Origin: an uncultured Nitrososphaerales archaeon
GTDB taxonomy: Archaea > Thermoproteota > Nitrososphaeria > Nitrososphaerales > Nitrososphaeraceae
Length of the DNA: 64,000 nucleotides
Assembly: GCA_963695855.1 (NCBI GenBank)
Contig: CAVOHZ010000008.1
Coordinates: forward strand, 448,001-512,000
Direction: 5' to 3'
The translations under genes were made by a program, and so were the position numbers. This document shows, piece by piece, positions 40,192-44,601 of this stretch. The notes under the pieces were generated by a model. It was given only the letters and a program-made list of their open reading frames with translations, made no database searches and had not been told where the DNA came from. Position 1 is the stretch's first letter. Each line of letters opens with the position of its first letter.

Positions 40192-41089
40192 TAGTATTAT
40201 ATATTGATGAATATAAAGCTCTCCTTCAAAAAACTAATCAATTGAAAAGTAATAGCTTCTAAAACCTTACACATTTTAATTACTATATATAGAATAAGAA
40301 ATAGGCTTGTCAAATGTTAAGCAAGTCTTTCAGACTCCTATAATAATATAGATTGTAATAAGTGTTTGGTTAATGTCTCTATCTATACCAAAGAGAATAT
40401 TTATTATCATATCAGTTAATTCAGTAATATCATACATTAGAAAATTTGGTGCTGTTAAGTTAATTTCTCTTTCTTTAATAAAATGAATTTTATTTCTGAA
40501 TTATAGAAATATAAAATAATCTATTCCAATTGTATACATGTCATAGATCACAATTTTATTTATTGTTATTGTTAATACCTGGATAATAATCATCAAAACA
40601 TTCGGTATTTTTTAGGAAAAATACAGGCTTGAGGATGATGTTATGTTCTACCATCTCTATACATAGTACATGTTTTCCATATTTGTCAGCTAATGATCTA
40701 ATGAATTTTTCAGCAATAGGCATGTTTCTCTCCTCTGATATATAGATTCCAAGCACAGAACTATACTGGTCCTATACAAAACTATAACCAGAAATGCTAG
40801 GTACCAATTTGAATAATGGTTTCATCTATTATTAAATGCTTATACTTTTTTTCTTTTGTGAATATGACATGAACCAAATCTCTGGATCCAATTCCAAACA
40901 GAAACATAACTTCTTTTCTTATCTCTAAAGATAACGAATGTTTTAGACGTATTTCTAAAACTTAAACCAAGAAAATACAAATACAAAGAATACGTAACAG
41001 GAAAAGTAGACGTTCTATTTCTTTCAAATTTAATTTTCATATAATAGATAGGATATTCTTAGCTATAGCGTTGACTGGTAAACTTAACA

Positions 41090-42529
41090 TCCATGAAAAT
41101 ATACCTGTATGCTGATTATCTTTTCTATCCTGTTTAGCCTCATTTTGTTATATCTTTCTATCTATCAAACATTGTCGACAATAGCCTCCGCTATATGTGG
41201 CATCGTTGTTCTCTCAAGTCATCGTATTGTTATTGTCTAACGAATTATCTTTATTGAGATCCAATCTTCTTCAGATTTTCCAGTTTCTGTTCATATCTAC
41301 TCCTGTTTATGTTTCTATATAATTGGTGTCTTGTTAGCATGTACCATATTATAACAAGCATCTCCTTTGCTGTTGCAACTATTGCTTTGCCGTGTCCTTT
41401 TCTTTGTTTTATTCTTTCATAGAATATTCTCATGTGATGGTCATGTCTTATTGCAGATAATGAACACTGTACTAGCATTCATCTCAGCAAAGGAGAACCT
41501 TGTTTTGTTATTCTACCTGTTTTTATTTTTCCGGATGATTCTCTTGTTGATGGTGATAATCCTGCATAACGAACAAGTTTACATGGTGTAGAGAATCTAT
41601 TGATATCCCTATTTCTGTTGATATCAGCATGGCAGAAAAAATGTCTATTCCTGTTATACTGACAAGTATCTTTATATCTTGACTGTCTTGCCAGGCATAT
41701 GTTGCTATCTCTTTTAATACTATTTCTATCTGGTTATCTATTGATTCTATTGATTCTATTGATGCTAGTGTTGTATTCAGTATTATTTTGTCTATCGGTG
41801 AAACTGAGAGTGATTTTAGCCAGTTAACTCCAGATTTTCCAAATATGTCTGTCAGTTCTGTTCTGTATTCATACTTGTCCAAAATAGCATGAATCTTGTT
41901 TGCTAATTTTGTTTATGTTCTAGACAAGACTATTCTATGTCTGACCAGACTCCTTTTTTCCCTAAATTCCTTTACAGGTACATATTACTCGCATACCAAT
42001 CAATCCAGTTCTCAGCAGATCAGATAATATACGTGCATCAAGTTTATCTGATTTTATCTTTGCTTGTGCTATTATCTTTGTCTTGTATGGATTTGCTAGT
42101 ACTGTATCTATTCCATTATCTTCTAACGTATCATGTATTCTCATCCACATGTTTCCTGTAGATTCCAGTACTGCATTACATTTTTTTGTTCTATGATTAT
42201 GTATCCTTTTAATCAATTCTAATATTCCCTGATAACCGTTACCAAAGAAGAATTCATTCAGTATCCTTCCCCTATCATCTTTTAGAGCTGCCATGCACTT
42301 TCTCTTTCCAACATCTATTCCAAGATGATTCAATTTTTTTCATTCACGATTTTTTTTATTTGTTGGCTAACAACAGGCGGCAAACATCCATACACTCTCT
42401 AAGAGTACTATGATAGCCACTTTAGATAAATAAGGTTCAGTCAGAGCCTCACTCTCCTCCGCAGTATGTTAAGTTTGAACCTAGCCAACATACAACAATG
42501 GTATAACCCAGAAGATTTTCATATCGTCA
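41090..42529 (-). mobile_element. IS110 family element with frameshifted DEDD recombinase (fragments 41251-42333)
   Basis: LGIDVGK, LESTG, KSDKLDA and C-terminal KAIVATAKEML motifs; CA core at 41088-41089 and 42528-42529; sub-terminal IR atgaaaat (41093-41100) / attttcat (42515-42522). Confidence 0.9.
42361..42490 (-). ncRNA. Putative IS110 bridge/seek RNA (target-binding and donor-binding loops)
   Basis: Outer stem tgttggcta/tagccaaca; stem aggttca/tgaacct enclosing CAGAGCCT and TGTTAAGTT (both target halves); stem gcggc/gccac enclosing CATCCAT (one donor half) and hairpin actct-cta-agagt. Confidence 0.75.
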
Positions 42530-42779
42530 GAGCCTAGGAAAGAGTAAGAATACTTATATTAATTGGTATAAAAGTAATAATCGGCACGATAATAAATGAT
42601 TTAACATTTCTATTTGGAAGGGGACATCTAACACGTTTTTTAGTGAACCAAAATTAAAGATTTATTTTAATTCTGAAACCGATATAATTTCAAAAGAAGA
42701 TAAAAAATGTAGTTTACAGTTTGATAGTAAAACTACTGATAGTAATGGAAAATAAAATAATTAAAATCTATGTCTAGAT

Positions 42780-42983
42780 TTGATTCCTGATGGTTTTATT
42801 TCATTTTTTATTTTTTGGATTATGGCAATACTACTTTTCTCTATCAAATCAATTTCAAAAAAAGAAGATAAAATTAAGTGTATAAAAAATACAAAATGTA
42901 ATTTTTGTAGTAGCAAGATGGATGTTAAATTACATTGTAACAATGCTGATTGTAGGGCTTTTTCTCATAAACCTCCTTCTTAA
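42780..42983 (+). CDS. Small membrane-anchored Cys-rich (possible Zn-ribbon) protein
   Basis: N-terminal TM helix followed by CNFC-x9-CNNADC. Confidence 0.4.
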   Translation: MIPDGFISFFIFWIMAILLFSIKSISKKEDKIKCIKNTKCNFCSSKMDVKLHCNNADCRAFSHKPPS

Positions 42984-43083
42984 CTTATCCGACGACTTTT
43001 GACAGCGTTAGAAAACTGATTAAGAGTTTACAGAAGTAAGTATAATATGCTTTATATTTTAGTATGTCGACAGTACTTAGTAT

Positions 43084-44601
43084 ATGCAATTAGCTCAAAC
43101 AGATTTAGATCTAAGCAAGAAATGCATGGAGATAGTGAATGAAATAGAACAATCGAATATAAAATGGGTTCGATTGAATTTTTGCGATCCTTTTGGTTTT
43201 TTACAACAAATAAGTGTCCAAAGTGAAGAGATAACAGAAGATGCGTTTAAAAACGGTATTCCTAGGCTAGATGGAAGTTCGATAAGAGGGTTCAGAGAGA
43301 TTCAGGAATCTGATATGCTGCTAAAGCCAGATCCAACTACTTTTGCTGTTTTACCAAATTATTTTGATAAAGATCATCACAATTATAATAACACTTACAG
43401 ATCAACAGCTGCCCGTATGTTTGTGGATATATATGAGGGCTTTAAGGGTACCCGTTACACTCGAGATCCTAGATTTATTGCACAGAAAGCTGCTCAAGTT
43501 GCAAAGGATAAAGGTTTTGAAAACAGCTATTGGGGTCCAGAATTGGAATTTTTTGTATTCAACAATATAAGACTGTTGCCAAATGCCATGTCAGCAGTTA
43601 ATTGCTCAGGAGGTACTGGATATTCTATTGAATCTACTGAGGCTCCGTGGGGGAATGGTAATGAAGGTGCAGCAGGATACACAATTCCTTTCAGAAGTGG
43701 GTATTTTCCAGCGCCACCTGCAGATAGTTTGACGGACTTTAGGGATGAAGTATCCGACATGCTACGCCAATATTTTGGAATCACGGTTGAAGCCCATCAT
43801 CATGAGGTAGCTACGGCGGGACAATGTGAAATACAAATGTCGTTTGCTAGTCTTGTTTCTATGGCTGATCAGGTAGTCACATACAAGAAAACAGTAAAGG
43901 AAACTGCTGCAAAACGTGGAATGGTAGCAAATTTTATGCCAAAACCGGTTGCACTAGATAACGGATCTGGAATGCATGTTAGCCAGAGTCTGTGGGGAAA
44001 GAAAAAAAATGATGAAGTAAATTTGTTTTATGATCCTGCTGATGAATATGCAGAGTTGAGTCAAACTGCATTTTACTATATAGGAGGGCTGATAGAACAT
44101 GCTGAGGCACTATGTGCCATTACTAATCCGACAACGAATTCTTATAGAAGGTTAGTGCCAGGATTCGAGGCTCCAATAAATGTTGCATGGAGCAAGATGA
44201 ACAGGTCAGCAAGTATAAGGATTCCTGCTCACTTTAGAAAAATGGAAAAAAGAAAGAGGATAGAGTTAAGAACACCAGATCCTAGTTCCAATATCTATCT
44301 TGTTGAGGCTGCATTGTTACTTGCAGGTCTGGATGGAATCAACAAAAAATCTTCAGTTCCAGAACCAGTAGATGCAGATATCTACAAGCTATCCGAAGAG
44401 AAAAAAACAGAATATGGAATTAAAAAATTGCCAACATCTTTGCAGGATGCCATAGAATCGTTAGAGAGTGATATGGAATTTCTAAAGCCGGCATTTACAA
44501 GTGATTTTCTAGAAATGTATTGTGATATTAAAAAAGATGAACATGTACAAGTTGCATCGATTCCATCGCCAAGAGAATTCTATATGTATGGTAACGTCTG
44601 A
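43084..44601 (+). CDS. glnA: Glutamine synthetase type I
   Basis: DGSSIRGF, GPELEFF, HHHEVATAGQCEI, FMPKP...NGSGMH, NSYRRLVPGFEAP, NRSASIRIP and RIELR.PDP motifs; TATA-like tttatat about 27-33 bp upstream. Confidence 0.95.
   Translation: MQLAQTDLDLSKKCMEIVNEIEQSNIKWVRLNFCDPFGFLQQISVQSEEITEDAFKNGIPRLDGSSIRGFREIQESDMLLKPDPTTFAVLPNYFDKDHHNYNNTYRSTAARMFVDIYEGFKGTRYTRDPRFIAQKAAQVAKDKGFENSYWGPELEFFVFNNIRLLPNAMSAVNCSGGTGYSIESTEAPWGNGNEGAAGYTIPFRSGYFPAPPADSLTDFRDEVSDMLRQYFGITVEAHHHEVATAGQCEIQMSFASLVSMADQVVTYKKTVKETAAKRGMVANFMPKPVALDNGSGMHVSQSLWGKKKNDEVNLFYDPADEYAELSQTAFYYIGGLIEHAEALCAITNPTTNSYRRLVPGFEAPINVAWSKMNRSASIRIPAHFRKMEKRKRIELRTPDPSSNIYLVEAALLLAGLDGINKKSSVPEPVDADIYKLSEEKKTEYGIKKLPTSLQDAIESLESDMEFLKPAFTSDFLEMYCDIKKDEHVQVASIPSPREFYMYGNV

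Follow-up and report, generated by a model that had tools for sequence, protein, structure and literature searches.

The window analysed here is a stretch of 64,000 nucleotides (nt) from an uncultured Nitrososphaerales archaeon (assembly GCA_963695855.1, contig CAVOHZ010000008.1, positions 448,001 to 512,000 of the forward strand). It contains an insertion sequence (IS) of the IS110 family which is composed of a broken recombinase gene, a putative non-coding RNA gene lying upstream of the recombinase start (42333) on the same strand, and non-coding parts of approximately 195 nt upstream and 160 nt downstream of the recombinase (Table 1). The source genome (3.55 Mb, 11 contigs) possesses archaeal amoA and is that of an ammonia-oxidising archaeon. 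Very probably, this organism carries at the locus an RNA-guided DEDD-recombinase insertion sequence of the IS110/IS1111 superfamily, in the form of a decayed copy. The element is of the known kind directed by bridge or seek RNAs (2024), with mixed group features and in a new host lineage. An earlier note, made from the letters of the window, had described the locus as a thaumarchaeal RNA-guided recombinase system. This description turned out to be largely right as regards the host (amoA), its relatives (Nitrososphaeraceae and Ca. Nitrosocosmicus) and the protein family, but it has to be qualified in that the copy is decayed and that its ends and guide order are IS1111-like.

Table 1. Features of the IS110-family element and of its insertion site in the window.
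Feature	Position	Strand	Basis or remark
IS110-family element	41090..42527	-	1438 nt between core dinucleotides; RNA-side end 42527, other end 41090
Bridge/seek-type non-coding RNA gene (outer stem, target-binding loop, donor-binding loop)	42361..42493	-	covariance model and compensatory changes
Outer stem TGTTGGCTA / TAGCCAACA	42490-42482 / 42369-42361	-	pairing
Target-loop stem GGTTCA / TGAACC	42481-42476 / 42439-42434	-	pairing
Guide A AACUUAACA (AACTTAACA), 5' side of target loop	42467..42475	-	9/9 identical to plus-strand 41081-41089 (flank and core)
Inner hairpin of target loop (TACTG...GAGTG)	42450..42466	-	alignment A1
Guide B AGGCUCUG (AGGCTCTG), 3' side of target loop	42442..42449	-	8/8 reverse complement of 42528-42535
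Donor-loop stem GTGGC / GCCGC	42420-42416 / 42381-42377	-	pairing
5' donor guide UAUCAUA (TATCATA)	42409..42415	-	first four bases (UAUC) alone pair contiguously with left end ACGATAT
3' donor guide AUGGAUG (ATGGATG)	42385..42391	-	7/7 reverse complement of 41088-41094
DEDD recombinase pseudogene, three open reading frames (41962-42333, 41523-41882, 41251-41478)	41251..42333	-	frameshifts located against intact paralogue of 356 amino acids
Core dinucleotide CA (TG in element orientation), RNA-side junction	42528..42529	+	sequence
Core dinucleotide CA (TG in element orientation), other junction	41088..41089	+	sequence
Left-end subterminal inverted repeat ATGAAAATCT (element sense)	42513..42522	-	sequence; conserved in other copies
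Left-end 7-nt extension TG+ACGAT, core counted in	42523-42529	-	precedes left repeat
Right-end subterminal inverted repeat ATATTTTCAT (element sense)	41093..41102	-	sequence
Right-end 3-nt extension GGA	41090-41092	-	after right repeat
Near-invariant motif GGCTAAACAGGA, right-end non-coding part	41128..41139	-	alignment of 24 right ends
Decayed IS6-family element hosting the insertion	40448..41089 and last 7 nt 42528-42534	.	blastn against intact 725-bp copy; inverted repeat at 40448
IS6 transposase fragments	40840-41040, 40556-40756	-	open reading frames within the decayed IS6 element

The covariance model R1, built from an alignment of 27 RNAs, matched the RNA gene with 128.3 bits (E 2.6e-29), its sole match in the window. 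In the target-binding loop, guide A is complementary to the element-sense strand of the core and the right flank (TGTTAAGTT); guide B has the same sense as the left flank and the core and consequently pairs with the opposite strand. The two target guides, which read opposite strands, overlap at the core, and the first A of guide B is a constant scaffold base. The 3' donor guide has the same sense as the tip of the right end (CATGGA) with the core TG, and a hairpin (ACTCT-TAG-AGAGT) lies between the two guides of the donor-binding loop. One pair of the inner target-loop hairpin is missing from the window copy, which has ACTG where relatives have ACTC. All strings and coordinates quoted in the earlier note were present. 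Of the donor match TATCATA, which had been called degenerate, the first four bases (TATC) hold up and co-vary with the left end in other copies, but the remainder does not. When the 130-nt stretch was subjected to 1,000,000 mononucleotide shuffles, guide A arose 382 times, guide B 1,652 times and the donor 7-mer 13,122 times, while guide A and guide B never arose together.

The proposed guides were compared with the flanks in 35 scaffold-bearing copies, obtained by a pattern search of the source genome and of 29 related loci (from Nitrososphaeraceae, Ca. Nitrosocosmicus and one Bathyarchaeia record) taken from public genomes of archaea. Across these copies the scaffold is nearly invariant, and the guide segments vary and follow the flanks. 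For the left side, the five non-core bases of guide B were compared with the left flank in 34 copies; locus L024, with its end and core eroded, was dropped. Matches were found at 165 of 170 positions (shuffle mean 113.9, maximum 142), a value reached by none of 100,000 shuffles. Of the ten guide-B variants recognised, eight are identical to their commonest flank; the exceptions are GGCTG (with a match in one of two copies) and GGCGC (with the flank GGCAC). For the right side, the seven non-core bases of guide A were compared in 28 copies, seven having been dropped because no right end was found (L036, L042, L049, L050) or because the candidate end was not followed by TG (L033, L034, L043). Here, 170 of 196 positions matched (shuffle mean 148.2, maximum 163), and again none of 100,000 shuffles reached the observed value. 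The guide-A variants TTAAGTT, TTAATTT, TTAACTT and TTCACTT are each represented by copies at the cognate flank.

A hold-out set gave the same picture. The model revealed 27 matches in newly fetched loci, 23 of which were new and four already in the training alignment. For 14 of the 23 a left end was assigned by an automatic rule, resulting in 12 distinct guide-flank pairs. At positions 2-8 of guide B, 76 of 84 bases matched the flank (shuffle mean 52.3, maximum 71; 0/100,000 as high). The unrelated target ATTATTTG was matched in 8/8 positions by L078, the right flank of which (TGTTATATG) agrees in six contiguous bases with the reverse complement of guide A. Further unrelated targets were CTGTTTTG (7/8), GGTTCTG (7/8 in three loci) and GATAAG, where the core is now AG (6/8). 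Among the nine matches left without an automatic end, one is cut by a contig end, and three match by eye (7, 7 and 6 of 8). The covariation of guides and flanks across homologous copies, which the earlier note had proposed as a check, is hence seen in the left, right and hold-out sets. The family constitutes a natural series for RNA-guided recombination: its left guide exists in ten or more variants and its targets fall into several unrelated classes, each being found at the cognate site.

Concerning the distribution of the RNA, matches to the model (E up to 1e-5) were present in 18 of 151 genomes sampled from the order, in 13 of 103 high-quality genomes and in 12 of 64 genera, with up to 10 copies in each of the related genomes. 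No match to R1 was detected in IS4321, in the relatives from Rhizobium etli and Natrinema or, apart from the weak match given below, in a second IS110-family lineage of the source genome, and the RNA family as modelled is therefore narrow.

The predicted fold was assessed in the alignment of 27 sequences. In the five proposed helices 93.3% of the cells are paired, compared to 31.8-40.6% when the partners were shifted by 1-3 columns. Both sides have changed in seven pairs, the five helices are supported by compensatory changes, and RNAalifold recovers the same helices when the structure is not supplied. In the donor stem, the alternation of U-A, U-G and C-G fits the minus-sense RNA, not its complement. 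In the inner hairpin, a change from A-U to G-C is retained in 8 of the 27 sequences. Folding of single sequences yielded z -2.89 for an intact copy (L003, RNA at L003:1545-1677; 0/200 shuffles as good), z -2.11 for the Bathyarchaeia copy (L036; 2/200) and z -1.42 for a miniature copy (L007; 23/200). What supports the fold is the comparative analysis, together with the intact copy. In L027:351-493, the loop of the donor hairpin contains a (GA)n expansion of approximately 20 nt, so the tip of this hairpin tolerates insertions.

An IS6-family element and its miniatures provide the target, which is the tip of their terminal inverted repeat; the insertion lies between bases 7 and 8. The preferred target GGCTCTG/TTAAGTT (the slash marks the insertion point) corresponds to bases 1-14 of this repeat. 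Thus, the element nests inside other transposons. IS4321 and IS5075 are said, in work by Partridge and Hall of 2003, to use other transposons' terminal inverted repeats as targets as well, and in this respect they are similar to the element described here. In the source genome, the unbroken 15-mer AGGCTCTGTTAAGTT occurs once exactly and nine times with no more than one mismatch, and the longer string GGCTCTGTTAAGTTAAG has 124 sites with no more than three mismatches, compared to about 9.6 expected. The latter string forms 35 inverted pairs within 3 kb; 17 of them are spaced 720-733 bp and nine about 120 bp, and these intact IS6 copies and miniatures are scattered over the genome. The 725-bp IS6 unit encodes a protein of 219 amino acids (aa), which matches Pfam DDE_Tnp_IS240 above the cut-off (E 4.9e-9) and the NCBIfam IS6 model over its full length with 103 bits, below the cut-off of 125.

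Including the window copy, the source genome harbors five full-length copies, two of which are intact (356 aa each). The four other copies are approximately 87% identical to the window copy, and the homology runs from 41081 to 42535 and ends exactly there. Taken alone, this may mean either that these positions are the true ends or that all copies reside in the same target. The latter is correct because the joined flank strings AGGCTCTGTTAAGTT occur unbroken elsewhere in the genome. Moreover, a contig from a soil metagenome runs from ...AACTTAACA directly into GAGCC and is an empty site in a relative. A subfamily from Nitrososphaeraceae (L029, L037, L044-L046) has the guide B AAGTTGTG and is inserted after ...GGCTCTGTTAACAGTTGTG. 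This site is found 19 nt inside a variant form of the same repeat and represents a natural retargeting within one host element.

The CA/TG core claimed by the earlier note was seen at both junctions. The left end is preceded by TG in 34 of 35 copies, and TG is also found after the right end in 28 of the 31 copies with a candidate for this end. The left and right subterminal repeats agree perfectly in 8/8 or in 9/10 positions, and ATGAAAAT(C/A)T is found at both ends. The near-invariant motif of the right end lies approximately 45 nt from the tip and is retained in miniature elements. It is complementary to the 3' segment of the RNA (CCTGTTAGCC) over 10 bp with one bulge. A pairing of the two was considered; the Bathyarchaeia copy retains this complementarity with two changed positions, but it is not kept across all subfamilies. 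A second RNA in the right-end non-coding region was considered and dropped, as RNAalifold finds no conserved fold there (about -2 kcal/mol); the guide strings are absent from this 160-nt region.

Regarding the recombinase, the intact paralogue (L003:1714-2784) contains the domain DEDD_Tnp_IS110 (PF01548, E 1.5e-21) followed by Transposase_20 (PF02371, E 2.9e-22). It passes the NCBIfam model NF033542 'IS110 family RNA-guided transposase' over the full length with 223.3 bits (cut-off 140), in agreement with the family assignment in the earlier note. The catalytic residues of the IS110 family are Asp-Glu-Asp-Asp and a Ser of the Tnp domain. In the intact paralogue, D7, E57, D96, D99 and S262 occupy columns conserved with IS621, IS4321 and other relatives. 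The frameshifts, which the earlier note had also mentioned, were located against this paralogue: a 4-nt insertion near 42001-42005 (codon 110) and a 1-nt deletion near 41608 (codon 238), in addition to an in-frame 9-nt duplication near 41755-41763. Because of the frameshifts, only the N-terminal piece, encoded by the first open reading frame (ORF), matches Pfam (DEDD_Tnp_IS110, E 5.3e-18). The window copy cannot make a recombinase and at best moves in trans via the two intact paralogues. In another full-length copy (C10:166432-168955 of the source genome), an insertion of approximately 1.03 kb splits the recombinase gene.

On the donor side, the 3' arm follows the tip of the right end: ATGGATG accompanies CATGGA+TG, in four copies ATAGATG accompanies CATAGA+TG, and ACGGGTG is found with CACGGG+TG. 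Of the relatives with ACGGATG, L048 is mismatched (on CATGGA), and no right end was found for L049. The first four bases of the 5' donor arm (TATC, TGTC, TCCT or TATA) co-vary with the left end of the same copy; misses are L038 and one miniature copy. According to Durrant et al. (PMC11208160), one donor arm of IS621 pairs discontiguously.

Seven miniature copies of approximately 315-352 bp were found in the source genome (C8:113668-114019, C8:187898-188230, C10:1354500-1354840, C10:1407610-1407957, C10:~1746100-1746456, C3:37339-37676 and C3:465557-465910). They lack the recombinase but retain the left end, the RNA in full length and some 115 nt from the right end. Four of them are nearly identical and lie in different flanks. 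The copy at C3:37339-37676, with a mutated guide B, escaped the pattern search, and the copy at C3:465557 has an internal duplication of the segment comprising guide B and the stem. The ends of the miniatures are ACTATAT and CATAGA, compared to ACGATAT and CATGGA in full-length copies, and the donor guides shift in step (TATA, ATAGATG). A miniature in another genome has the guide A AAATTAACA and sits at TGTTAATTT (9/9). These agreements suggest that the miniatures rely on an RNA of their own for recognition and on a borrowed recombinase. Self-guided miniatures in turn suggest that RNA, not protein, can define the identity of a mobile element. A limited literature search on non-autonomous elements with a bridge RNA returned MITEPpu9 of Pseudomonas putida as the sole relevant match, which does not show absence from print. 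As described in PMC12288879, MITEPpu9 is likewise a recombinase-less IS110-family miniature moved by the recombinase of its parent; it carries the small RNA Ssr9, which is dispensable for transposition, whereas the archaeal miniatures of about 335 bp carry the bridge-type RNA itself.

If the element works like IS621, ISEc11 and ISEc21, the RNA would be transcribed and bound by the recombinase, the element would form a circle, and recombination would depend on the RNA. The RNA of approximately 130 nt, originating from just inside the recombinase-upstream end, would fold into an outer stem around two internal loops. The 5' arm of the target loop (9 nt) would pair with one strand of the core and the right flank, and the 3' arm (7-8 nt) with the other strand of the left flank and the core. 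Likewise, the two arms of the donor loop may recognise the element ends where these abut in the excised circle, one of them pairing over 7 contiguous nt with the right-end tip and the core, the other over 4 contiguous nt and scattered bases with the left end. A tetramer of the RNA-bound recombinase would then exchange strands at the TG/CA core.

Several observations weigh against an RNA-guided element. Guide A matches are incomplete in part of the family: none of the eight copies of the subfamily TAAACTT/TAATCTT/TAAAACT has a full right match, the core-proximal four to five bases alone agreeing, and two recombinase-less copies of the source genome match the right flank with one mismatch (8/9). 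The Bathyarchaeia copy matches the left flank in 7/8 positions but the right flank, at an end assigned by eye, in 1/9. Five hold-out matches (L082, L088, L089, L096, L098) show no evident flank match by eye. Furthermore, the copies are kin, so the shuffle tests overstate their independence and the counts are not probabilities. The own fold of the window copy is weak and does not clearly beat shuffles (z -1.94 for 130 nt, 9/200 as good; z -1.52 for 191 nt, 16/200), and its minimum-energy fold is devoid of the target-loop stem. The two-loop fold which the earlier note had suggested checking is borne out by compensatory changes and RNAalifold, but not by the folding of the window stretch, which remains close to the shuffles. 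No Rfam family matches within 40500-43200 at E up to 10. Twenty of 24 listed sequencing runs share part of the stretch, none of them half of its words; two are recorded as RNA, and four were aligned. Assembled contigs of the RNA libraries cover 41746-41956 (X15) as well as 42088-42238 and 41006-41065 (X20) and leave the RNA gene uncovered, although such contigs cannot show transcription.

It is conceivable that the strings shared with the flanks are subterminal repeats recognised by a protein, as in many DDE elements, in which case 41081 and 42535 would be the true ends and RNA guides would not exist. In favor of this, the homology among the full-length copies covers 41081-42535 and includes both flank strings, and the element does possess genuine subterminal inverted repeats. 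However, both flank strings are found abutted and uninterrupted at many loci, as the tip of the IS6 inverted repeat, and in the metagenome contig. Different internal strings go with different flanks, among them the unrelated ATTATTTG, AGTTAATG and CAGTTGTG. Since the strings also lie in the loops of a fold backed by compensatory changes and the protein belongs to the RNA-guided family NF033542, this explanation is scarcely credible and close to refuted. A role of the structured region as a mere 5' untranslated leader, controlling translation or stability of the recombinase and matching the flanks incidentally, is very improbable, too. It does not predict that the guides co-vary with flanks and ends, and it leaves the whole RNA in the recombinase-less derivatives unexplained. 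On the other hand, the region is located directly upstream of the start codon with no terminator-like signal in between, and the leader of ISPpu9 has been described as a structured inhibitory 5' untranslated region (PMC12288879). A leader role and a guide role are not exclusive. The bridge RNA of IS110 elements is thought to be processed from the leader.

Another alternative concerns the activity of the family, not its identity. The family may be an extinct relic, the guides of which record past insertions with none of them active today. The window copy and two other full-length copies are broken, and several hold-out matches look decayed. Yet two copies of the source genome combine intact ORFs of 356 aa with intact RNAs and perfect guide-target matches, the four near-identical recombinase-less copies occupy different flanks, and related genomes carry as many copies as given above. 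Extinction is therefore regarded as unlikely, though less so than the two preceding alternatives.

The reading as an RNA-guided element of the IS110/IS1111 superfamily raises the question to which of the two groups it is closer. By its ends and guide order, the element resembles the IS1111 group more than IS110 proper. In the IS110 group as described, a top-strand guide follows the bottom-strand guide (PMC11208160, PMC11187229), and the subterminal repeat comprises 2-3 bp (PMC11208160). Siddiquee et al. (PMC11187229) reported the bottom-strand-first order for ISEc21, and for IS1111-type elements a complement of the top strand in first position and an RNA located downstream. In the element studied here, the position of the RNA, upstream of the recombinase in the left end, agrees with the IS110 group, but the 5' arm complements the element-sense strand and the 3' arm the other one, and the repeat comprises 8 perfect or 9/10 bp. 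The earlier note was correct in placing the right-half guide before the left-half guide, which is the order reported for IS1111-type seekRNAs (PMC11187229). The repeat falls within the range of 7-17 bp given for IS1111 by Durrant et al. (PMC11208160) and is shorter than the 11-13 bp usual according to Siddiquee et al. (PMC11187229), who also described terminal extensions beyond the repeats, 7 bp long at the left end and 3 bp long at the right; TGACGAT and GGA correspond to these. By contrast, the position of the RNA upstream of the recombinase deviates from that of the IS1111 group, in which it resides downstream in the right end. An upstream RNA with two loops in combination with guide order and ends of the IS1111 type shows that guide polarity and RNA position are separable.

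The comparison with individual systems leads to the same mixture. In the descriptions of IS621 (PMC11208160; Hiraizumi et al. 2026, PMC13626964), the RNA is situated upstream of the recombinase in the same orientation and has two simple internal loops, the target loop first and the donor loop second. The two arms of each loop read opposite strands and end in the core, one donor arm is discontiguous, and the recombinase has the two domains DEDD and Tnp. All this is shared by the archaeal element. Its polarity is mirrored compared to IS621, though, since it is the element-sense strand of the right half to which the 5' arm pairs; the repeat is 8-10 bp long instead of 2-3 bp, the core is TG instead of CT, and the host is archaeal. 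The IS1111 elements with seekRNAs (ISEc11, ISPa11, ISKpn4 and IS4321/IS5075; PMC11187229) agree with it in the top-strand-complementary guide preceding the bottom-strand guide, in long subterminal inverted repeats and in the 7- and 3-bp extensions, whereas their RNA is located downstream. By eye, a copy of IS4321 reveals the same 7/3 geometry (TAATGAG and AGA). While many IS1111 members have a multi-loop donor site according to Durrant et al. (PMC11208160), the archaeal RNA has two simple loops. The layout as such has already been seen, because ISMtsp17 (upstream) as well as ISHvo10 and ISAcp5 (both sides) were reported as IS1111-like exceptions by the position of a long non-coding region (PMC11187229); the element, with its parts of about 195 and 160 nt, is similar in this respect.

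The intact paralogue scored 311 bits (phmmer) with the Bathyarchaeia record, 277 with a second lineage in the source genome, 236 with a protein from a Natrinema plasmid, 194 with one from a Rhizobium etli plasmid and 41.4 with IS4321 (IS1111 group). Compared to solved structures, it is distantly related to IS621 (E 6e-9, 38.6 bits) and ISCro4 (E 9e-9, 38 bits). The recombinase is thus equidistant from IS4321 and from IS621/ISCro4 by these pairwise scores. The R. etli relative, the closest bacterial relative found, appears to keep its guides downstream. It has the same geometry of repeat and extensions, non-coding parts of 266 nt downstream and 135 nt upstream, and, downstream of the gene, an 8-nt top-strand and then a 7-nt bottom-strand guide-like match (single copy, by eye). 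The Natrinema relative (L072; plasmid NZ_CP100757.1, locus ~503-1916) is 40% identical, with a 14-bp subterminal repeat and the core TG. It sits in an ISH3-family element, of which uninterrupted copies exist in other haloarchaeal plasmids, and so gives a further example of an IS110-family member inside a transposon; by eye it has a guide-B-like string upstream of the gene and a 7/3-type geometry.

Tentatively, and with more doubt than confidence, the element may be assigned to a distinct, mainly archaeal lineage of bridge recombinases with mixed IS110/IS1111 features, representing an intermediate of RNA translocation, possessing self-addressed miniatures and nesting in the inverted repeats of other insertion sequences. 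This lineage would comprise Nitrososphaerales, one Bathyarchaeia record and perhaps haloarchaea. Durrant et al. proposed an RNA-translocation step between the IS110 and IS1111 groups, of which, if the assignment is true, the lineage would be a living example. The miniatures, with donor loops co-evolved with their own ends, would then be self-addressed parasites of the recombinase. The mechanism itself is known; the mixed architecture and the self-guided miniature elements are the more original points. In a limited literature search, which for IS110 in Nitrososphaera yielded a single metagenomics paper of 2012, no description of such elements in ammonia-oxidising archaea was found; this does not show absence from print, and the ISfinder-wide tables of Durrant et al. 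and Siddiquee et al. may list relatives. With its compact recombinase of 356 aa and an RNA of 130 nt, the guides of which comprise 9+7 bases for the target and 4+7 for the donor, this system of a mesophilic soil archaeon is a candidate for reconstitution and reprogramming. In addition, the covariance model marks these elements and their recombinase-less derivatives, which are missed by gene callers.

Besides the family described so far, other IS110-family genes reside in the source genome. The second lineage (378 aa) is represented by an inverted pair (L053/L054, C10:287651-288100 and C10:290554-291003) and by C8:370647-371096. Its upstream region of approximately 295 nt gives a weak match to the RNA model (27 bits, E 2.5e-4), and it has the 11-bp subterminal repeat ATGTAAAAGTC. 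The 3' target-loop string CTTGTTG is identical to the left flank with TG; the 5' arm gave no match to the right flank. A third lineage (362 aa, three copies: L056-L058 at C10:140735, C10:267181 and C10:1598728) lies within a repeated unit of approximately 2.2 kb, which is bounded by GGCTCTGTAG...CTACAGAGCC-like inverted repeats and also contains a 334-aa ORF. Its left flank ends with GGCTCTG, and the string CTGTAGGT recurs just downstream of the recombinase gene. A fourth, degraded gene with three in-frame stops (L064, C10:1354934-1355410) is positioned directly downstream of a miniature; its upstream sequence starts with a TTAACTTAAC-type string, and the observation extends to the right flank of the miniature at C3:37339. 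At C8:431347-431452, about 17 kb upstream of the window start, the RNA model gives one more weak match (38.6 bits). Finally, a TATA-like AT-rich stretch was noticed by eye in the alignment approximately 20 nt upstream of the outer stem in several copies.

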